DNA of 64,000 nt, from NCBI GenBank assembly GCA_963762255.1, contig CAVXKA010000001.1, forward strand, positions 1,632,001 through 1,696,000, given 5' to 3'. The position numbers and the translations under genes are program-made. Of this stretch, positions 1 through 9,186 are shown piece after piece. Source of the DNA: Candidatus Eiseniibacteriota bacterium (lineage in GTDB: Bacteria; Eisenbacteria; RBG-16-71-46; JABDJR01). A model generated the notes under the pieces. That model searched no databases, was not told the origin of the DNA, and saw only the letters and a list, made by a program, of their open reading frames with translations. Numbering within the stretch: the stretch's first letter is position 1; every line of letters begins with the position of its first letter.

Positions 1-414
1 CCCGCGGCGCCGCGGCAAGCCGATTCCTGGTTGAGAGGCAGCGAGACCATTCTCCTCGTGGAGGATGAGGAGGCGCTCCAGTTGTTGCTGAGCACGGTGC
101 TATCTCGTGCCGGCTATCGCGTGATGTCAGCCAGAAACGCACCGCAGGCGCTGACCCTGGCCGGACATGGCGTCGAGGGCATCGACCTGCTCGTCAGCGA
201 CGTAATCATGCCGGGCATGGGCGGGCGTGAGCTGGCCGACCGGCTCCTGTCGCGGCGGCCGGAGCTCAAGGTGCTCTTCATCTCGGGCTATCCCAACGAT
301 GCTTTGGGAACCGTGGGCTCGCCCGGCGCCGAATTGGCGTTCCTCACCAAGCCATTCACGGCCGATGAGCTGCTGCGCAAAGTGCGGGAGACGCTGGACC
401 GCGAATCGGCGTAA
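1..414 (+). CDS. C-terminal receiver domain of a hybrid sensor histidine kinase (5' truncated)
   Basis: Frame is open from base 1; GSETILLVEDE...LLVSDVIMPGMGG...FISGY...FLTKPF is a typical CckA-like C-terminal REC domain. Confidence 0.85.
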   Translation, partial: PAAPRQADSWLRGSETILLVEDEEALQLLLSTVLSRAGYRVMSARNAPQALTLAGHGVEGIDLLVSDVIMPGMGGRELADRLLSRRPELKVLFISGYPNDALGTVGSPGAELAFLTKPFTADELLRKVRETLDRESA

Positions 415-461
415 GGGGCAGGAATAGGGGACCGGCGCCGTCAGCGCGAGGGGATGCGCGT

Positions 462-2858
462 TCAGCGTGAGCGGGGCTTCTCGATCCCGAGCTTCTTGAT
501 CCGTCCGGCAAGCGTGGTGCGGCTCATGCCGAGGATGCGCGCAGCCGCGGTGGTGTTCCACTCGGCGCTCTCGAGCGCGTTGCGCACCCGGGCGCGTTCG
601 ATCTCCTCCAACTCCGCCGGCAGGGAACCGATGTCGTCCCCGGACGTGACTCCAAGGAAGTGGCGTGGGTAGAGGAAACCCTGGGTGCCCGCCAGCGCCA
701 CCGCGCGCTCGATGGCCAGCTTCAACTCGCGGACGTTCCCCGGCCACGATTGCCCCATGAGCCACTGCGTCGTCTCGAACGTGAGTTCGAGCGACTTTCC
801 CTGGCTCCGGTTCGCGTGCTCGACGAAGTGCTGAGCGAGAGGGGGGACGTCCCCGAGGCGCTCCCGCAAGGGCGGCAATGTCACTTCGAGGCCGCGCAGG
901 CGGAAGTAGAGGTCCTTGCGGAACCGCCCGCTCTCGACGGCCTTCACCAGGTCCACGTTCGTGGCGGCGACGATGCGCACGTCTACGACCTCATGCTTGG
1001 TGCCGCCGACCGGCCGCAACTCACCTGTCTCCAGCACGCGCAGGAGCTTGGCCTGCGCGGAGGCGGACATCTCACCGATCTCATCGAGGAACAACGTGCC
1101 TTGGTGCGCCTCGCGGAAGAGGCCGGGCTTGTCGTAGATCGCTCCGGTAAACGCGCCGCGGCGGTGCCCGAAGAGTTCGCTCTCCAGGATCTCCGCGGGA
1201 AGCGCGCCGCAGTTGATGGCGAGGAAGGATTGGGCCACGCGCGGGCTCAATTCGTGCACGAGGCGGGCGAAGAGTTCCTTCCCGGTGCCGCTCTGGCCGT
1301 GGATGAGGATCGGGACCTTGGTGGGGGCCAGCTTCGCGATGATGGAGGCCTGGTTCTCGAGACGCCTGGATGCGGTGATGATGCCGAAGCGCCGCAGGTC
1401 GACCCGAGGGAGTTCGTCGGCGAGACTTGAGCCGGCTGGATCGAGAGAGGCCGGCGCATGGTTGGCGGCGAGGGACGGACCCTCGGCCGGAAGGAATCCC
1501 AGTTCCTCTCGAATCGTGCGCCAGCGCTCGAACATGGGGCGGGCGCCGCCGGCTTCGGCGAGGTACTCGACGCGGGTCCACCATTCGTCGGCGACGTCCG
1601 GGCGATCGAGGCTGTCGGCCACGGTGACGATGCGTCGCGCGGTCAGGAGGTGCTCGTAGCCGTACCCAAGCCGGGCTGCCCGGTTCGCGTGCTCGATCAG
1701 CTTGTCGAGAGCCGATTCGCCTCCACCGTTCAGCCACTCGATCTCGGCGTCTACCCGGTCGAGGGCCAGGGTGTCCTCGGCTTCGCTGGCTGTCTCTGCG
1801 TGCTTGCGCGCGCGCCGGACGTGGAGGGTTGCATACCGAGGGTGGTCGCGCTCGACCCAGAACTCGGCGAGCCAGCGGTGGAGTTCGATGGCGGCATCAG
1901 AATGAGTGGACACGCGGCGCGCGCACCTGAGCGCCTCGGCCATCGATCTGAGCGCCTCGAGTGAACGGTCCTCCAACGCGAAACCGCAACCTAGATATTC
2001 ATGCCCTTGACCCTCCTCTCTCGGTGAGTCTAGCCGTCTCGCCAAAGCGATCGCCTCACATGCCAGCTCACGTGCCTCTGCTGCCTTGCCCATTCGCACA
2101 CCCGCGATCGCCATCCCCAGCCTTCCGCGGAGCTCTCGCATGGGCGAGTTCATGAGTGGCGACGATTGCGCAGTGAATGCGTAGCAGTCATGGGCAGAAT
2201 CCAGGGCTCCACTCTCCAAGAATGTGCTACCAAGATTGAGAGAGACTGACGCCAGGAGCGATGGTTCCTCAATGGCCAAGCAGATGGTCCTCGCTCTTGA
2301 CAAGAGCGCTCTTGCGCTGTGTGGATCGCCTTGAAGTCGGTAGGCTGAACCAAGCGCGAAGCTCGCCCGGACTTCGTCAAACTGATTGATCCCGGTCGAC
2401 GAGAAGAGAGCTTTGCTCAACTCGAGATGCGAGATCGCGGAGGCCAAGTGGCCCGATCCGAGTTCGCAGACACCCAGACCAAGCAAGCCTTCTGCTTGAA
2501 GAGCGGGTATCCCTTCCGCGCTCCCCTCCGTACGCAGAGCCTCGGCAGCGCGCTGTGCCCGATGCAGTCGACCACTGTAGAAAGGGACGTTCCAGAGTCC
2601 GTGGAGGAGTCGCACAAACTCCCCTTGCTCAGCGGGGGGAAGGGCTCGCCACACCGTGATCGCTTTGAGAGTGGCTGTCTTTCTGGCTTGAGGAGAACCT
2701 GACTCAAATTCCACACGCATCTCGTCAGCCGCGACATATGCGTCTCTACCGACCTTTGATCTCGCTGTGGCTTCAAACCCAGGACGTGGGCAAGCCACTT
2801 GCGTGGACGTCAGGTGCGTGAGTCTCTCCAGCAGTTCGCGCTCGTTCCGGACTGCCAT
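462..2858 (-). CDS. Sigma54-dependent enhancer-binding protein with N-terminal TPR-like region, AAA+ domain and C-terminal HTH
   Basis: GQSGTGKE Walker A, ESELFGH, GAFTGA, LFLDEIGE, WPGNVREL and a Fis-type HTH (AARILGMSRTTL); about 440 N-terminal aa of helical TPR-like repeats (e.g. ALGSAYRLQGD, NLGSTFLESG). Confidence 0.9.
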   Translation of the reverse strand: MAVRNERELLERLTHLTSTQVACPRPGFEATARSKVGRDAYVAADEMRVEFESGSPQARKTATLKAITVWRALPPAEQGEFVRLLHGLWNVPFYSGRLHRAQRAAEALRTEGSAEGIPALQAEGLLGLGVCELGSGHLASAISHLELSKALFSSTGINQFDEVRASFALGSAYRLQGDPHSARALLSRARTICLAIEEPSLLASVSLNLGSTFLESGALDSAHDCYAFTAQSSPLMNSPMRELRGRLGMAIAGVRMGKAAEARELACEAIALARRLDSPREEGQGHEYLGCGFALEDRSLEALRSMAEALRCARRVSTHSDAAIELHRWLAEFWVERDHPRYATLHVRRARKHAETASEAEDTLALDRVDAEIEWLNGGGESALDKLIEHANRAARLGYGYEHLLTARRIVTVADSLDRPDVADEWWTRVEYLAEAGGARPMFERWRTIREELGFLPAEGPSLAANHAPASLDPAGSSLADELPRVDLRRFGIITASRRLENQASIIAKLAPTKVPILIHGQSGTGKELFARLVHELSPRVAQSFLAINCGALPAEILESELFGHRRGAFTGAIYDKPGLFREAHQGTLFLDEIGEMSASAQAKLLRVLETGELRPVGGTKHEVVDVRIVAATNVDLVKAVESGRFRKDLYFRLRGLEVTLPPLRERLGDVPPLAQHFVEHANRSQGKSLELTFETTQWLMGQSWPGNVRELKLAIERAVALAGTQGFLYPRHFLGVTSGDDIGSLPAELEEIERARVRNALESAEWNTTAAARILGMSRTTLAGRIKKLGIEKPRSR

Positions 2859-2861
2859 CGT

Positions 2862-3167
2862 CTAGATCCACCTGAGAAGCAACTGGGTGATGAACGAGAG
2901 AACGGCCTGGGACAGAGACGCCGCGGGCCCGACCCTCACGCCAGTGTGATAAACCGTGGGGAAGAGTTGGCGATCAGGTGCTCCCCACTGATCCGGTTTG
3001 CTCTCCAGCCCCCCCCCAAAATCGCCTAGGTCCTGGGCGATGTGAGACGTCCGGGCCAGTGCAGGCTGAGGGATGAAAGACAAACTGATCATGACGACCA
3101 ATGAAACGCAGAAGGCGAGAATCAAGAGACGCGCGATCTGGTGGGTGAGACCGCGGAATATTGCCAT
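2862..3167 (-). CDS. Small secreted protein / putative signalling pre-peptide (101 aa)
   Basis: GGAGG RBS about 10 nt before ATG 3167; signal peptide (RLLILAFCVSLVVMISLSFIPQPALA); stop lies 3 nt before the ATG of the TPR-EBP gene. Confidence 0.7.
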   Translation of the reverse strand: MAIFRGLTHQIARLLILAFCVSLVVMISLSFIPQPALARTSHIAQDLGDFGGGLESKPDQWGAPDRQLFPTVYHTGVRVGPAASLSQAVLSFITQLLLRWI

Positions 3168-3290
3168 CGGGGTTGTCCTCCACTTGGGGACGGGGTCCCG
3201 GCCGAAACCGCCGCAGATGCCATCAGCGGAGCAGGTCTTGACTTGACCGCATTGGCGGCACGCCGAGGACATGGCTACAAAGTAGCCAGT

Positions 3291-3320
3291 AAGATACATT
3301 ATCTGCCGTGGGCTTGTCAA
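3291..3320 (-). promoter_or_regulatory. Putative sigma70 promoter for the peptide/TPR-EBP operon
   Basis: Minus strand TTGACA-N18-TATCTT; an inverted repeat TGGCTAC-aaa-GTAGCCA at 3272-3288 lies just downstream of it. Confidence 0.45.
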
Positions 3321-3494
3321 GAGTGACGGGATAGGAGCATCAGGAGATCTGCGAAAACATGACTATCTTGGTTGCAATTGGAGGTGACGCATGGGCCGGG
3401 TGCACCCGAGGCGAGGGCAACCGGTTGCATGTCGACGACAGAGTGCGTGTTAACCCGAGATATGCATTGACCCCCGGTCCGCGGTAACCGAAAC

Positions 3495-3530
3495 AGCGAG
3501 GCCGGGCCCATCACGGACCCGGCCATCGCT
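3495..3530 (-). terminator. Hairpin downstream of the S9 peptidase, putative terminator
   Basis: agcga-ggccggg ... cccggcc-a-tcgct inverted repeat about 35 nt after the stop at 3567; short U-tract on the minus strand. Confidence 0.45.
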
Positions 3531-3566
3531 CAACGAACTGCCAACGTCTCGTCTACCGAACTGGGG

Positions 3567-6320
3567 CTACTTCCCCGCCCCCGCCGCCGGCGTCATCGAC
3601 GTGAGCGTCGATGTCATGGTCGCGCCGCCCATCGAGGGCATCTTCTGCTCCCCGCGCACCGCGAAGTGCGGCGCCTCGCGGGTGACCCACGACTTCATCC
3701 CGCCGCCCGGCTCGTCGTCGATCGGGGTCAACTCGACCACGAACGTCGGGAACGATCCCGCGCCGCTCGATGAGATGTCGCTCCCGATAACCGCGAGCTT
3801 CATCGTTCGCACCTTCTGGCTATTGACCTCGAACACGCGAACCGTGGCGGTGTACCCCTCGGCGAGCGGCAGCGTCGCAACCGCCAGGGCGAGCCCCGAC
3901 CCGTCCGTCCACACCGGCGCGTCGAGCTTCACCTCCACCGGGAGCGTTTGCCCGCCGCCGACCAGCTCACCCGAGATCTTGTCCGCGGCGTACTGGAGCT
4001 TGATCGATCCCATGCCGCTCGCGGTCTGACTGACCGGCATCAGCGTCTTGCGATCGAGAAGCAGCGTGCTCTCCTGCATGCCCATCGGGGTCTCGATCAC
4101 GTCGTTCACGCTCCACAGCGATCGCCCCGCGTCCTTGATCGCCTCGATCGTACGCGTGATCTTGAGATCTAGCTTCTGCCCGCCCGCCTCGATGCTGACG
4201 TCGTAAGCGAGCTTGTTGTCCTTGATGAGGCTGCCATCCAGCGTGGGCAGCGCCGACGTCTTGGCCGTCTCCGCGACCTTAACGGCCGCGGCATCGGGGA
4301 GCTTCACGGACGCAGGATCGACGGTGATCTCCTTGAGCCGCGCGGCGATCTTGTCAGGGACGTCCTGTTGCACCCGCCCGCCCAGGTTCTTGGCGAGGAA
4401 TCGCTCCATGGCCACCGCCAGCGCCATCCGGTTCTCCGCCGAGCGGAACCCGTGTCCCTCGTCGGGCGCCACGATGTACTCCACCGGCATCCCCTTGTCG
4501 CGCAGCGAGACCACGATGCGATCCGACTCCGCCTGCTTCACGCGAGGATCGTTGGCGCCGTGCACCACGAGGAGCGGCACCTTGATCCGGTCCACGAAGT
4601 TGATCGGCGAGCGCGCCTCCAAGTCCTTCCGATCGTTCGGATCGGCCGGATCGCCCACGCGCAGGTACCACGAGCCCTTCAGGAACGGCCGCCAGTAGGC
4701 GGGGAAGGACTCCATCAGCGTGATGAGGTTGGACGGTGCGACGTAGGGAATCGCGCACTTGTAGAGGTCGGGCGTGAACGTGACCCCGGCCAGGGTCGCG
4801 TAGCCGCCGTACGAACCGCCGAAGATCGTCACGCGCTTCGGGTCCGCAATGCCTTCCTTGATCAGCCACTGCACGCCGTCGGTGAGGTCGTGCTGCATGG
4901 CGCCGGTGCCCCACTCGTGGTTGCCGGCGTTGAGGAACTTCTTGCCGTAGCCGGTGGAAGTCCGGAAGTTCGGCTGGATGACGGCGTAGCCCCGGTTGGC
5001 CAGGAACTGCGCATAGGGCTCATATCCCCAACTGTCACGCGCCCACGGGCCGCCGTGGGGATACATGACGAGGGGGAGGTTCTTGGGCTCGACCCCCCTG
5101 GGCAGGGTGAGCAGCGCGGGGATTTCCATCCCGTCGCGCGCCTTGTAGCGCACAGCCTTCATCTCGGCAAGGTTCTCGCTCGGTAGGTCGGGCCGTGACC
5201 GGTAGAGCAGCGTGAACTCACCGGACTGCCGGTCGTAGAGATAGATGGAGCCGGGATCCACGTCGCTCTGCACGGCGATCAGATGCCAGCGCATGTCCTT
5301 CGTGGAGGATCCCACCCCGATGTTGCCGGGCGGCAGCTTCTCGCGGATGAGCTTCAGGTCCCGCTCGAACTCCGGGGTGCGCGCATAGATGCGCTGGCGA
5401 TCGCCGTCGTACACCGTGCCGATCAACTCGTAGGTGCGGGAATCGAAGAGCGGCGCCCCGAAGTCCACCTGGTTCTCCGGATCCGACTCCACCAACTCCG
5501 TCTTGCCGGTCATCGGATCCATGAGGACGAGCCGGGTGAGATCGACGTCATCGCCCTTGTTGGTCTCGAAATAGACCTTCTTGCCGTCCGGTGTGAACAT
5601 CAGCGGGCCGGCCGCCTCGAGGTAGGAGACCTCGTAGATCGGGATCAGCTTCTCGCCCTCGACGCGGAAGAACTGGCTCCCCCCGTCCTCCTTCTGCTTC
5701 ATGGCGAGGCGGACGTTCCCCTCGAGGTCGAAGGTGTAGCCGCCGACGCTGTCCGTGTTCTTGATGAGGAGCGTTCGATCGCCGGTCGCGATGCTCACCG
5801 TGTAGACGTCGCTGAACATGGGATCGCGATCGTTCAACCCGACCAGAATCACGTCGGGCTTGTTCTCCGGAAGCGCGTAGATCGTCGCGCGCGCGCCTTC
5901 AACGGGTGTGAGATCGCGCGCCGAGGGCACGCCGCTCGCCGCTTCGGGGGCCCCCGCCGGATCCACCGAGTAGACGTGCCAGTTCTCGTTGCCGCCCTTG
6001 TCCTGCACGTACAGAACGTAGCGGCTGTCGTGGCTCCAGAAGTAACCCACGACCGGCCGCTCGTCGGCGGTGAGGGGCTTGGCCGCGTCGAAGGGCTCTT
6101 CGCGCTTCTTGACCCAGATGTTGCGCACATCCTTGTAAGGCTTCACGAAGGTGATCCACTGCCCGTCGGGCGAGATTTGGGCGCCCGAGATTTGCGGATC
6201 GCCGAAGAAGAGTTCCCGGTCGATCAGCGGCGGGAGATCGGCTCGCGCCGGCGTTACCCCGGCCAGCACGGCCAGGCCGAGCAAAGCGACCAAGACGGGA
6301 ACGAACAGCTTCCTGCACAT
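3567..6320 (-). CDS. Secreted S9 family peptidase (dipeptidyl aminopeptidase/acylaminoacyl peptidase) with an extra C-terminal domain
   Basis: Signal peptide [21 protein letters not shown]; HGGPW, GGSYGG nucleophile, NDPRV, DEGHGF; GGAGGAG RBS before 6320. Confidence 0.9.
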
Positions 6321-6500
6321 CGTCAACATCTCCTCCCAATAGAGGGGGATAGAGCCGAGGATCGGCTTGAAGGGGATCTGCGAGGGGTGGCCGGATTCTA
6401 GCGTATTGGGCGGGGGGTGACGATCTCCATTCCATTCGACTAGAATGCAGGCGGATTGTGCGGTTCGCCCACCTCTTGTCCCGAATACAAGGAGTCGACC

Positions 6501-9186
6501 ATGAGGCGCATGGTTTTCCTGTTCGCCGCGCTCGCGTTCTCCCTGAGTCTCGTCCTGGGGTGCGAGAAGGATAAGGTGACAGGACCCGGCAGCGGGAGCA
6601 GCGACCTTCCCATCCCCGACCAGATCGCGCTGTCGCGCGATATCCCGGCTCTGCTCGCCAACGGCGTTTCCACCACGCAGATCTTTGCCACCGTGGTGGA
6701 TGCGCAGAGACGAGTCTTGGAGGGCGCGGCGGTCTACTTCGTCGCCGACAGAGGGTTGGTCGAGCCGTTCGCTACGACCGATCGCACCGGGGTGGCCAGC
6801 ACCACCTACACTTCCGCGGCGAGCGCCGTGGATGTGACCGCGCGCATCACCGCGCAGGCGTTCAAGGACACGCTGGGATCGCCCCTCCCGGGCGCGCTGG
6901 TGCTGCTCAGCAAGGAACCCTTGAGTCAGGACCTCCTCGACAAGGCCGTCGACGCGCGGCGCAGCATCGTCCGCGACGGCGTGACGCTGGCGGCAGCGGA
7001 TGTCGTGGAGGACCATGTCGATGTGGAGCTCCTCGGCATTACCTTGACCGTGACTGCGACACCTTCGGCGATTCCGGCCGACGGGATCAGCACGAGTCGG
7101 GTCCGCGCCCGTCTCGTGGAGACGACGAGCAACGTGCCGCTGGACGGAGAGAGCGTCCGCTTCGGCTCCACCGCCGGAGCGATCACCGGGCGGGTGACCA
7201 CCGACGCCACCGGGACAGCGACCGCGACGCTTACGGCGACCGCGACCGGGACCGCAGGGATCACCGTCTACTACGGAAACCTCCTGACGACCACGACCAG
7301 CGTGAGCTTCAGCGCGCTCAACCTGACCCTTTCCGCCGCTCCGGCGAGCATCGTGGGCGACGGCAAGACGACGACCACGGTCACCGCGCGGCTGGTCAGC
7401 GCGCTCCTCAACCCCGTCGTCGGTGTCCAGGTTCGATTCACCACGAATCTCGGTTCGATCGCCGGCTCCGCCGTTACCGATGGATCCGGGGAGGCGAGGG
7501 CCATGCTGCGCTCGGCGAGCGGCACCGGCACCGCGACGGTTTCGGCGACCTACGAGGGCGCGCCCACTGCGACCATGACTGTTTCCTTCACCGCGATCCC
7601 GACCGCGGCGGAAGTGCTGCTCTCCGCCGAGCCAGGATCACTCCCCGCCGACGGCGCCAGCGAAGCCACCCTGACCGCGCGCGTTCTGGACGCGGGCGGC
7701 AACCCGGTGCCTGACGGTACCGCGGTGGTTTTCTCGGTCGTCTCCGGAGGCGGCAATCTCGTAGGACCGAATCGGGTCACGGTGAGCGGCGTGGCCGAGG
7801 CGATCTACGTTGCCGGGACCACCTCGGGGCTCGTGAACGTGAAGGCTCAGGTCGGCACCGTGCAGAAGACCGCGCAGGTGACCTTGACGCGCCTGGGAAC
7901 CGGGAGCCTGACGTTGACTTCGCTGGATGCCACCGTCATCGCGGACGGTCTCAAGTCGACCATCGCTCACCGCGGTGGTCAAGGACGCTCTGGGCAACCC
8001 CGTGGCCGCGGGGACGGCGGTGTCTTTCCAGACCTCGCTCGGTGCGATCGAGGACGTGAAGCCCACCGACGCCTCGGGGGTTGCCACCGCGAAGCTGCGG
8101 CCGAACCGCTTCGTCACCGGCACCGCGCGGGTGACTGCTGCGGCGGGCGGCTTCAGCCAGATCGTGGACGTGAAGTTCGTCTCCGAAACGGCGACGCACA
8201 TCGTCGTGATCGACGTGAACGAGCCAAGCATCGGCGTGGTCGAATCGGCTTCGCCTCAGGTTGCGCAGATCACCTATGAGGTCCGGGATCGCAACGGGAT
8301 CCCCGTGGACCGCGATCACGCGATTTCTCTCACTTTCGCAGTGGACCCCGGGGAACCGTCTGCGACGGACGCGGTCGTAAGCCCCACGTCGGCCACGACC
8401 AACGAGCGCGGGCGTGCGGTGGCCAACGTCCAGGCCGGGCGGGTCTCCGGATCGATCGAAGTGCGCGCGACGTCCGGTGCGCTGGTGTCCAGGCCGATCC
8501 GGGTGGCGATCCACGGCGATCTCCCCGATCCGGACCACTTCTCACTCGCCTTCCAAAAGGTCAACATCGCCGGACTCGTCTATGAGGGAATCCGCAACAA
8601 GGTGACCGCTCACGTGGGAGACCAGTGGGGGAACCCGGTTCCGGACTCGACGGTGGTTTGGTTCTGGGCCGATTACGGCATCGTCCAAGGGAGCGGGTTC
8701 ACCGATGACTTCGCGGAAGCTGTCGTCTGGGAAGTCACCTCGGCCCCGTACCCGCTCATCCCGGGGGGCGACGGACTGGTCGCCATCACGGCCCAAACGG
8801 TGAGTAAGGCGGGCCTCAAGATCGAGACTAGCGGCAACGTGATGTGGTCCGGCCCCACGATCGTGGAATTCACCGACCCCACTCCGGGCGCGGGCTTCGC
8901 CATCCTGAACGGCGGGTCCAAGACGTTCACCTTCCGCGTGCGCGACCTCAACAATAACCCGCTCACCGGAGGAACCAAGATCACGGTCGAGGCCACTGCC
9001 GGGAATCTGGCGGGAGACACCGACATCGTGTTGCCCGACACCCAGAGCGCGGAGTACACGACCTTCCACGTGACCCTGTCCGACGACGTCCCGGATGAGG
9101 ATCTTGTTCGACCAACGACCATCACGGTGAAGGTGACGAGCGAGAACGGGAACCGGGCCGCCACGATCACGGGGACGCTGAACTAG
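6501..9186 (+). pseudogene. Lipoprotein with multiple invasin/intimin-type Ig-like (Big_1) repeats, split by a +1 frameshift near 7961-7966
   Basis: AAGGAG RBS, lipobox LVLGC, repeated ADG..T.TA.V.D..GNPV..G.AV.F.T motifs; the repeat continues in a second frame (SLTAVVKDALGNPV). May be a sequencing indel rather than a true pseudogene. Confidence 0.75.

Follow-up and report, generated by a model that had tools for sequence, protein, structure and literature searches.

A candidate peptide/sensor pair in Eisenbacteria: a small, putatively exported protein encoded beside a sigma-54 activator with a tetratricopeptide repeat domain

We identified a conserved gene pair in a 64,000-nucleotide stretch of DNA from Candidatus Eiseniibacteriota bacterium (assembly GCA_963762255.1, contig CAVXKA010000001.1, positions 1,632,001 to 1,696,000 of the forward strand), the whole of which is called the window here. 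One member is a small open reading frame (ORF) with a signal-peptide-like start; the other encodes a sigma-54 activator whose N-terminal part is a tetratricopeptide repeat (TPR) domain. Judging from the sequences compared, the small ORF is a genuine and conserved gene, and chance does not account for the pair. Our tentative reading, held with considerable reserve, is that the two may constitute a cognate pair of peptide and TPR sensor driving sigma-54-dependent transcription, an analogue of the RRNPP systems. The gene pair appears to be undescribed. Its main features are the following.

2862..3167, minus strand: small ORF, 101 aa plus stop (ATG at 3167, TAG at 2862-2864), putative exported pro-protein
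3054..3167, minus strand: signal-peptide-like segment, residues 1-38, predicted cut after A38 (ALA38)
2982..3002, minus strand: acidic-proline motif SKPDQWG, residues 56-62, candidate ligand or recognition motif
2868..2921, minus strand: hydrophobic, basic C-terminal helix, residues 83-100, predicted by AlphaFold2
462..2858, minus strand: activator, sigma-54 enhancer-binding protein, 798 aa plus stop; ATG at 2858, 3 nt past the small-ORF stop
1494..2858, minus strand: TPR sensor domain, residues 1 to ~455, ~10 helix pairs, AlphaFold2 predicted local distance difference test (pLDDT) 89.6
684..1382, minus strand: AAA+ sigma-54 interaction domain and lid, residues 493-725 (Pfam Sigma54_activat, AAA_lid_14)
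1140-1157, minus strand: GAFTGA, residues 568-573, read in the sequence
489..611, minus strand: Fis-type HTH_8 DNA-binding domain, residues 750-790 (Pfam, 8e-12)

The initial annotation had described the small ORF as having a GGAGG ribosome-binding site, a signal-like start ending in ALA and a core rich in Gly, Asp and Pro, all of which are present in the sequence. The N-terminus has a basic start, 19 to 20 hydrophobic residues and then PQPALA followed by RT; the core is DLGDFGGGLESKPDQWGAPD, the middle contains LESKPDQWGAPD and the tail ends in AVLSFITQLLLRWI. On the strength of the basic start, the hydrophobic run and the small-x-small site, the product may carry a signal for Sec and signal peptidase I (Sec/SPI) and is predicted to be exported. 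AlphaFold2, run with a 55-row alignment, predicted a helix at residues 3-30 (pLDDT ~90) and another at residues 83-100 (H83-100, pLDDT ~80-86), while the middle including SKPDQWG was of low confidence (pLDDT 53-58) and is predicted to be disordered. The C-terminal helix had also been called amphipathic, and this part of the description did not stand: a hydrophobic helix was indeed predicted, but amphipathicity was not greater than in shuffled tails (median z 0.18 at 100 degrees, 55 members), and neither helical nor strand hydrophobic moments of the tails exceeded those of shuffles.

Conservation of the small ORF as a coding sequence, the absence of which would have counted heavily against the annotation, was clear. 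Positional orthologs were found in four relatives (G001, G004, G007 and G003), and public gene calls hold the identical 101-aa protein. Compared to G001, which belongs to the same genus as G000 (the genome holding the window), the product has equal length and 51% identity, with only one difference in the first 13 residues; the ratio of non-synonymous to synonymous substitutions (dN/dS) was 0.51 overall, with values of 0.36 for the signal segment, 0.33 for residues 40-66 and 0.93 for residues 67-101. Among 1.84 billion cluster representatives, a profile built from an alignment of 55 family members detected 382 at E≤0.001, of which 197 had ≤1e-10. The 150 listed of these 382 were 101-158 aa long and nearly all matched across most of their length, and the representatives sampled were labelled "hypothetical protein" or had no name. 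Searches of the small ORFs against Pfam and NCBIfam gave nothing above chance, and ESM Atlas gave no usable match for the small ORF. A longer reading of 152 aa from TTG 3320 was rejected as not real, because the corresponding stretch of G001 is alike as DNA and lies in another frame, so that the extension is not conserved as protein. We also asked how common such an arrangement is among the 1198 long ORFs of the genome with high G+C at third codon positions. A loose filter (an ORF of 75-170 aa that begins like a signal peptide and whose end lies close to the start of the next ORF) matched 154 of them (12.9%) and is therefore weak by itself. A strict filter (acidic-proline motif plus hydrophobic, basic tail) matched 2 of 1198, both of them TPR-activator genes, namely the window pair and a second pair at C1:1440290.

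The occurrence of the pair was then followed across the phylum, sampled as one class with 18 families (f1-f18) and mostly fragmented assemblies; counts of sampled genomes include G054, an unpublished genome. The TPR sensor profile matched all 151 genomes sampled, at E≤1e-50. Upstream DNA of TPR-activator genes was read in 58 genomes, selected as best matches and not randomly, that span 15 of the 18 families (f5, f16 and f18 lie outside the set). As the initial annotation had anticipated, 56 of the 58 genomes had a small signal-peptide ORF immediately before the activator gene and on its strand. The window family, f1, has five intact pairs (G000, G001, G004, G007 and G003), and both genes are broken in G006; seven of seven more distant genomes have the small ORF; among new f10 genomes 20 of 21 pairs are intact, the small ORF of G101 being interrupted; f3, f4, f9, f10, f11, f12, f14 and f17 contributed 19/19 (two by eye only, one with an uncertain start codon), and f6, f7, f8, f13 and f15 contributed 5/5. 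The two exceptions, G006 and G101, are decayed copies. Small ORFs were found by their features, a procedure that mis-picked two loci (L020 and L093) and missed six others (L045, L050, L053, L056, L081 and L091); these were left out of alignments or read by eye. The distance from stop to start, 3 nt in the window, ranged from -35 to +80 nt over 55 pairs. The small ORF was the only neighbor of the TPR-activator that was constant across families, other neighbors being variable.

Several genomes contained more than one pair. G000 has three, two of which are outside the window, and its other activators have ~1020-1070 aa, at least one of them with an added GAF domain. The pair at C1:1440290-1443854 consists of a small ORF carrying GDPDAF twice before a TPR-GAF-AAA+(GSFTGA)-HTH protein of ~1040-1070 aa; in the pair at C3 ~620000-626500, a small ORF with GGGLEADPDTF precedes a TPR-activator of 1018 aa. 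In G014 we found at least six intact pairs, in which stop and start codons overlap as ATGA, and tandem arrays that also include truncated copies. In two such arrays, L089 and L090, there are shortened activators as well as small ORFs with a truncated or absent downstream partner, and a strict sigma-54 regular expression detected no site in the G014 arrays. The arrays suggest rapid gain and loss of pairs. In G034 (L091), a 734-aa TPR protein that lacks GAFTGA lies 3 nt after a small ORF of the family type. By eye, the AAA+ part of this protein is degenerate, its Walker A having no lysine, and an HTH is not evident, so that the sensor pair survives there with no obvious sigma-54 output. Survival of the pair despite loss of GAFTGA suggests that its functional core consists of the small ORF and the TPR domain. 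From these gene arrangements, the small ORF and activator duplicate and decay as a unit; constant adjacency, coupled translation, joint duplication and decay, and a surviving core of small ORF and TPR are what would be expected of specifically interacting proteins.

The signals around the pair, listed below, point to one transcription unit.

3291..3320, minus strand: sigma-70-type promoter, TTGACA-18 nt-TATCTT, before the small ORF (promoter scan)
3272..3288, no strand assigned: perfect palindrome TGGCTAC-TTT-GTAGCCA (TGGCTAC-N3-GTAGCCA), just downstream of the -10 box
3177..3181, minus strand: GGAGG ribosome-binding site of the small ORF, 9 nt before its ATG

The TTGACA-18-TATCTT pair was the sole promoter-like match in 300..3700 (shuffles: 0.3). 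Identical TTGACA and TATCTT hexamers precede the G001 ortholog with a spacer of 17 nt, and comparable -35/-10 pairs were seen by eye upstream of the small ORF in G004, G007 and G003. The G001 ortholog also has GGAGG, with a spacer of 8 nt. No terminator-like site was found in 300..3700 (shuffles: 1.5). Because there is a single sigma-70-type promoter, no terminator-like site and a spacing of 3 nt, the small ORF and activator thus appear to form one sigma-70-driven unit whose spacing fits coupled translation. In f1, the final codons of the small ORF are AGG TGG (as in the window) or GGG TGG, which constitute the Shine-Dalgarno sequence of the activator, and the conserved terminal Trp of f1 small proteins is explained in part by this second role. 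The junction between the two genes did not fold more stably than shuffles in four orthologs (z-scores +1.58, -0.18, +0.71 and -0.31), and Rfam gave no match on 2700-3700.

No sigma-54 -24/-12 element was found before the small ORF. One candidate, TGGCTACTTTGTAGCC (GG-N10-GC), is the palindrome that follows the conserved sigma-70-type promoter; since it is missing in the other genera (G004, G007 and G003), it was not read as a sigma-54 promoter. The palindrome itself is a possible operator or 5' hairpin. It has a single exact copy in the genome and 8 sites when up to two mismatches are allowed, and in G001 6 of 7 arm positions pair. One two-mismatch copy, at C1:928860 of G000, is also downstream of a TATAAT-like box, and the two may represent a shared operator. 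A weighted scan with the sigma-54 consensus gave 494 sites in the whole genome, of which none near the locus was convincing. With respect to base composition, G+C drops from ~0.68 to ~0.59 in window ~1950-3500, a segment that takes in promoter, small ORF and the initial 300 TPR codons, and the first 1.2 kb of the operon have G+C 0.54-0.65 against 0.667 for the genome. Recent horizontal transfer was considered as the cause and rejected: an identical dip occurs in all four f1 orthologs (G001, G004 and G007 included), and it is therefore a property of the segment and not of a recent import. Little could be learned from sequencing runs, each of which held at most a fifth of the sampled words in a read search. 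RNA-library contigs of run X20 match the activator only at 773-1016 and 1448-1740 (96-97% likeness) and leave the small ORF uncovered; they are silent on small-ORF expression, and DNA carry-over is possible.

The activator has the two features expected of a sigma-54 enhancer-binding protein, an AAA+ domain with GAFTGA and a DNA-binding helix-turn-helix (HTH), and Pfam detected TPR_12 (2.6e-12), Sigma54_activat (2.4e-64), AAA_lid_14 and HTH_8 in it. Both the 3-nt gap and the combination of TPR, AAA+ (GAFTGA) and HTH had been noted initially and were confirmed by sequence and Pfam, as was the lack of a receiver domain, none of which was detected by Pfam. The protein has no membrane segment, and no named equivalog cut-off of NCBIfam was reached by the locus proteins. 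In sequence, the TPR domain is of the LGN/kinesin-light-chain type (TPR_12): its profile matched designed TPRs, LGN/Pins, kinesin light chains and AfsR among PDB chains, and ESM Atlas returned only generic TPR clusters for the sensor. In a TPR alignment R280 was invariant, and R315, R328 and R368 were nearly so. The sensor diverges faster than the AAA+ domain (68-85% versus 94% identity to G001, and 32-55% versus 73% to G004), and the small ORF changes faster than the activator (51% versus ~81% identity to G001).

The predicted sensor was also compared by structure. LGN/Pins was top by E-value in Foldseek, and Rap chains were among the highest TM-scores listed (0.58-0.61 / 0.75-0.77). With VIA-align, the pheromone-bound Rap of phage phi3T scored Z 28.3-29.4 (root-mean-square deviation, rmsd, 3.7-3.9 across 346-354 residues, almost the complete Rap chain), followed by MalT domain III (Z 28.0, rmsd 3.7 across 344 residues), other complexes of Rap with peptide (4gyo, RapF 4i9c and phi105 Rap, Z 26.6-27.1), APPBP2 (Z 26), LGN (Z 25, rmsd 6.5), NprR (Z 24.2 and 23.6) and AimR (Z 22-23). 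Gaps in Z of this size are small among repeat proteins, and the model is therefore described as having Rap/MalT-like geometry, which is not proof of kinship. Prediction of a complex between the TPR domain (467 aa, 55-row alignment) and residues 40-101 of the small protein scored 0.01 in both runs, which had no controls, and counts neither for nor against binding.

The small-protein family is divergent, with a mean column identity of 15% over the 55 aligned members and P58 as the sole nearly invariant residue. A signal-like segment followed by a small-x-small site after a hydrophobic run of 14-32 residues (mostly 16-24) was present in 55/55 members by a simple, permissive rule applied without a control. 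The linker is rich in Gly, Ser and Pro, and the middle region has a mean net charge of -2.1. Tails are hydrophobic (mean hydrophobicity 0.16, with interspersed Arg) and basic (mean net charge +2.7), and 23 of the 55 end in F, W or Y. A conserved core of the P-D type, also foreseen in the initial annotation, was recovered as the acidic-proline motif in 53/55 members by a broader pattern, with the family-wide form [G/S/A]-[D/K]-P-D-x-[P/W/F]. The motif is SKPDQWG in the window genus (identical in G001), GKPDEWS in G004, SKPEEWS in G007, GDPD-x-P in f10, f12 and f17, S/T-PDETL in f9, I/L-PDQ-E/D in G014 (f7), and GDEW or GDDW in f14, f6 and f8. The frame GDPD-x-P is almost fixed in f10, where x is represented by 14 different residues, and the small ORFs of the three G000 pairs (SKPDQW, GDPDAF twice, and ADPDTF) have P-D in common. 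Two genomes have, upstream, a second, paralogous small signal-peptide ORF: G004 (L006, 3495-3929, minus strand) with three motif copies and G007 (L007, 3458-3790, minus strand) with two. Other export or sorting signals were considered for the family and rejected. A twin-arginine signal is unlikely to apply, RR being found in only some f10 members. PEP-CTERM/exosortase signals have P-E-P directly before a transmembrane helix and an Arg cluster, unlike the tails here, in which ~20 residues separate the motif from the tail (more in many relatives); no sorting domain was matched in NCBIfam or Pfam for the small ORF.

How might such a pair work? In the mechanism that we tentatively propose, the 101-aa product would be exported by Sec and cut after ALA38, leaving a disordered acidic middle that carries a short linear motif (SKPDQWG here). 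The motif, probably released by proteolysis and taken up by an oligopeptide permease, would bind the N-terminal TPR superhelix of the activator on its concave side. This binding would alter restraint or promotion of AAA+ ring assembly by the TPR domain and thereby switch sigma-54-dependent transcription; the conserved basic hydrophobic tail may hold the protein at the membrane or serve as a pro-domain. This peptide/receptor reading is the most economical because a conserved motif lies in a disordered exported region and the partner has a Rap-like TPR groove domain. Conservation of the acidic-proline motif inside predicted disorder supports it, and peptide uptake is possible, since G000 has seven stretches with matches to the binding-protein family of Opp/Dpp type, four of which are full-length. 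The organism had been assumed to be diderm and to use sigma-54, and the Omp85 family proteins and rpoN of its genome led us to the same conclusion.

Several observations weigh against this reading. Binding, export, cleavage, processing and uptake of the small protein are each steps that we infer, a peptide would need to cross the outer membrane twice, and the listed Opp-type genes are distant from the locus. The pro-protein is long (85-145 aa from true starts in relatives) and keeps a basic hydrophobic tail that the model does not need. The start of the f10 proteins is unusually conserved (M-R/P-R-F-x-x-N-R-W-W in most genera), which is also unexplained by the model, and the motif is nearly uniform across f10 genera and among the G014 paralogs, an odd property for a discriminating signal; tail, f10 start and near-identical G014 motifs all fit a peptide signal poorly. 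At least two motif copies were found in only 4 of 55 primary small ORFs. In structure, the lead of Rap over MalT domain III, APPBP2 and LGN is small for repeat proteins, and Rap and NprR chains are absent from the best 60 of 313 PDB matches of the TPR profile. Likeness of SKPD-x-x-G to NprX was noticed post hoc and involves seven residues. Finally, picking of best matches and kinship among relatives make the genomes non-independent samples.

A somewhat unlikely alternative is that the two proteins are co-expressed and do not bind each other. The shared operon would serve only joint production, the small protein having a role in the envelope, perhaps in the periplasm, at the membrane surface or in modulating another sensor, and the TPR domain, like MalT domain III, sensing something different such as a metabolite or some other protein. 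The predicted exit of the product from the cytoplasm, where an activator without membrane segment would stay behind, agrees with this idea, as do the score of the sugar sensor MalT domain III, as good as that of Rap (Z 28.0), and the presence in larger paralogs of GAF, a small-molecule sensor domain. Within f1, a hybrid histidine kinase is encoded tail to tail with the activator in 5/5 genomes with sequence (G000, G001, G004, G007 and G006); yet this kinase is not conserved outside f1, whereas the small ORF is the sole constant neighbor over 15 families, is duplicated with each paralog, is retained with the TPR part despite the loss of GAFTGA and abuts or overlaps the activator start codon, a pattern that is usual for mutually acting proteins.

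An unlikely possibility is a partner switch coupled to export. Here the unexported precursor, through its tail or acidic motif, would bind the TPR domain in the cytoplasm and be removed by Sec, so that the activator would report export capacity or envelope stress, comparable to the export of FlgM that frees sigma-28 and to type III chaperones, which are released when their substrates are secreted. Such a switch would profit from one-to-one synthesis by coupled translation, would make re-import across two membranes unnecessary and would give the conserved tail a job, and sigma-54 systems such as PspF do respond to envelope stress. However, Sec export is constitutive and would hold the switch in a single state, one generic stress would hardly call for three to six or more paralogous pairs in a genome, and the tail is nearly neutral between G000 and G001 (dN/dS 0.93).

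It is improbable, in our view, that the ligand of the TPR domain is the N-terminal cytoplasmic tail, either of the uncleaved protein or of the released signal peptide. The activator would be tethered to the membrane until an event in the periplasm, for instance cleavage or degradation of the small protein's outer part, releases it, as the anti-sigma factor RseA holds sigma-E. TPR domains do bind short linear peptides, conservation of the start is much stronger than in a generic signal peptide both in most f10 genera and between G000 and G001 (one difference in 13 residues), and the hydrophobic run is long. The 23 of 55 tails that end in F, W or Y recall the ends of outer-membrane proteins, which are read by periplasmic PDZ proteases. 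Nevertheless, the small-x-small site, often after Pro or Gly, is kept in 55/55 members by the permissive rule and favors removal of the signal peptide; moreover, the starts of the G014 paralogs are short and generic, and the cytoplasmic tail would have merely ~8-13 residues.

Least of all do we expect a secretion-monitor leader that stalls the ribosome until pulled by export and tunes activator translation in cis: although an N-terminal export signal, a conserved C-terminal segment, a position directly before the regulated gene and a length resembling that of MifM speak for it, the four orthologs have no stable or conserved hairpin over the activator ribosome site, plain coupling agrees with the 3-nt gaps and ATGA overlaps, the tail lacks strict conservation and, in f1, an arrest-type end with Pro/Gly, and the downstream gene encodes a transcription activator and not a secretion factor, so that neither the hairpin hiding a ribosome site nor the downstream secretion-factor gene of SecM, MifM and VemP was found in the window pair.

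Other genes surround the pair. Window 1-414 (plus strand, continuing upstream) holds the end of the gene for the hybrid histidine kinase, a 914-aa protein with a C-terminal receiver. Its tail-to-tail arrangement with the activator is kept in G001, G004, G007 and G006 and is absent in other families. On the other side, window 3567-6323 (minus strand) encodes an S9-family serine peptidase that begins like a signal peptide and is extended at its C-terminus by an additional region, located between the small ORF and a Big_1 gene; it has weak matches to Dpp5 and lasso-isopeptidase-like families of NCBIfam. A DNA contig of run X2 joins the end of the peptidase gene to the small ORF with ~94% likeness. 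This peptidase was considered as a processing enzyme and rejected, as it was unmatched in the G004, G007, G006 and G003 loci (the G001 locus ends before this position). The Big_1/invasin-like lipoprotein gene at window 6456-9186 (plus strand) is present as two overlapping ORFs, 6456..8279 and 7927..9186, both of which are matched by orthologous DNA of G004 and G006. The split may reflect a frameshift, an assembly error or two genes.

Gram-positive Bacillota are regarded as the specialists in peptide signaling via cytoplasmic TPR receptors, and detection tools made for Gram-positive genomes and receptors of 250-500 aa would therefore skip pairs of the window type. If the peptide/sensor reading is true, it would extend the logic of secretion, processing, re-import and binding to double-membraned bacteria and add a new class of input for enhancer-binding proteins. 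A broader version, which we regard as rather doubtful, is that an entire diderm phylum has independently invented peptide signaling of the RRNPP kind, with an LGN-type TPR scaffold wired to sigma-54. Each genome might then have several private channels, the variable residues around an invariant P-D (GDPD-x-P, SKPDQW, ADPDTF) serving as a code; it would be the first peptide-pheromone signaling with a cytoplasmic receptor outside Bacillota and the first peptide-gated enhancer-binding protein. Were the pair to work otherwise, for instance by tethering to the membrane or as a switch coupled to export, it would still represent an undescribed form of sigma-54 control. The family is also a clean test object, with partners of ~100 aa, a defined 7-residue motif and natural sets of paralogs for specificity swaps. 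We found no published description of a TPR-type enhancer-binding protein with an exported partner, and no paper on RRNPP-like systems in diderms, in a search with subscription journals and supplements outside its range; in the portions of the literature on enhancer-binding proteins that it returned, the term TPR was not found.

Among known systems, the pair most resembles the RRNPPA families (Rap-Phr, NprR-NprX, PlcR-PapR and AimR-AimP), in which a small gene for a Sec-type propeptide is adjacent to a gene for a cytoplasmic TPR receptor and several pairs per genome, tandem copies and decayed copies occur. The RRNPP_detector paper (PMC10075063) gives five criteria: a propeptide of 10-100 aa, a Sec/SPI signal, a receptor of 250-500 aa, TPRs, and adjacent genes. 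Adjacency (3 nt) and TPRs (TPR_12 2.6e-12, ~10 helix pairs) are present in the window, and a Sec signal is plausibly present in the small protein, which at 101 aa is one residue too long (85-145 aa in relatives). The activator, with 798 aa (~1020-1070 in paralogs), is well outside the receptor range, and its TPR module alone has ~455 aa. The same paper describes receptor outputs as an N-terminal HTH or a phosphatase function, unlike the sigma-54 AAA+ ATPase and Fis-type HTH of the activator. Seven RRNPPA subfamilies are placed in Bacillales and Lactobacillales, and some propeptides carry several pheromone copies, according to another study (PMC9765709). The Eisenbacteria pairs differ in belonging to a diderm phylum, in being present at least once in nearly every genome read and not accessory, in a longer pro-protein with a conserved basic hydrophobic tail, and in a TPR sequence of the LGN/kinesin-light-chain type. 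No RRNPP propeptide with a conserved basic hydrophobic C-terminal tail is known to us. With respect to the ligand, the smallest form in which NprX is active, an internal piece of its propeptide, is SKPDIVG (variant SKPDTYG), and the interaction of NprX Asp with the conserved Arg126 of NprR matters, according to PMC3763537; SKPDQWG of the window shares S, K, P, D and G in register with SKPDIVG, and the TPR domain of the activator has arginines of its own that are invariant (R280) or nearly so (R315, R328 and R368). The proposal of an RRNPP-like pair in the initial annotation thus holds in part: a conserved, co-duplicating ORF, a disordered motif and a Rap/MalT/NprR/AimR-like fold agree with it, while two size criteria and the LGN-type TPR sequence do not. 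We regard the resemblance as analogy rather than as demonstrated homology or family membership.

Likeness to other TPR and helical-repeat proteins is of two kinds. Among natural proteins in the PDB, LGN/Pins and kinesin light chain match the TPR domain best in sequence (E 3e-38 to 1e-19, among the best 60 of 313), and they bind short linear motifs of disordered partners in their concave groove. Kinesin light chain reads acidic tryptophan motifs, and several small ORFs carry P-D/E-x-W or G-D-E-W. Both are, however, eukaryotic scaffolds without transcription output, and their superhelix fits less well (rmsd 6.5-8.5, versus 3.7-3.9 for Rap). MalT resembles the activator in joining a helical-repeat sensor (domain III) to an oligomerizing ATPase and a DNA-binding domain, but has the reversed domain order, a STAND NOD instead of a sigma-54 AAA+ domain, a sugar ligand and no partner small ORF. 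With NtrC, NorR, XylR/DmpR and PspF the activator shares a complete AAA+ domain with GAFTGA, the lid and HTH_8, and by analogy with these enhancer-binding proteins its N-terminal domain presumably gates ring assembly. It differs from them in that the sensor is a TPR superhelix of 450 residues and not a receiver, GAF, PAS or V4R domain, and in that a dedicated small protein, predicted to be exported, is encoded alongside.

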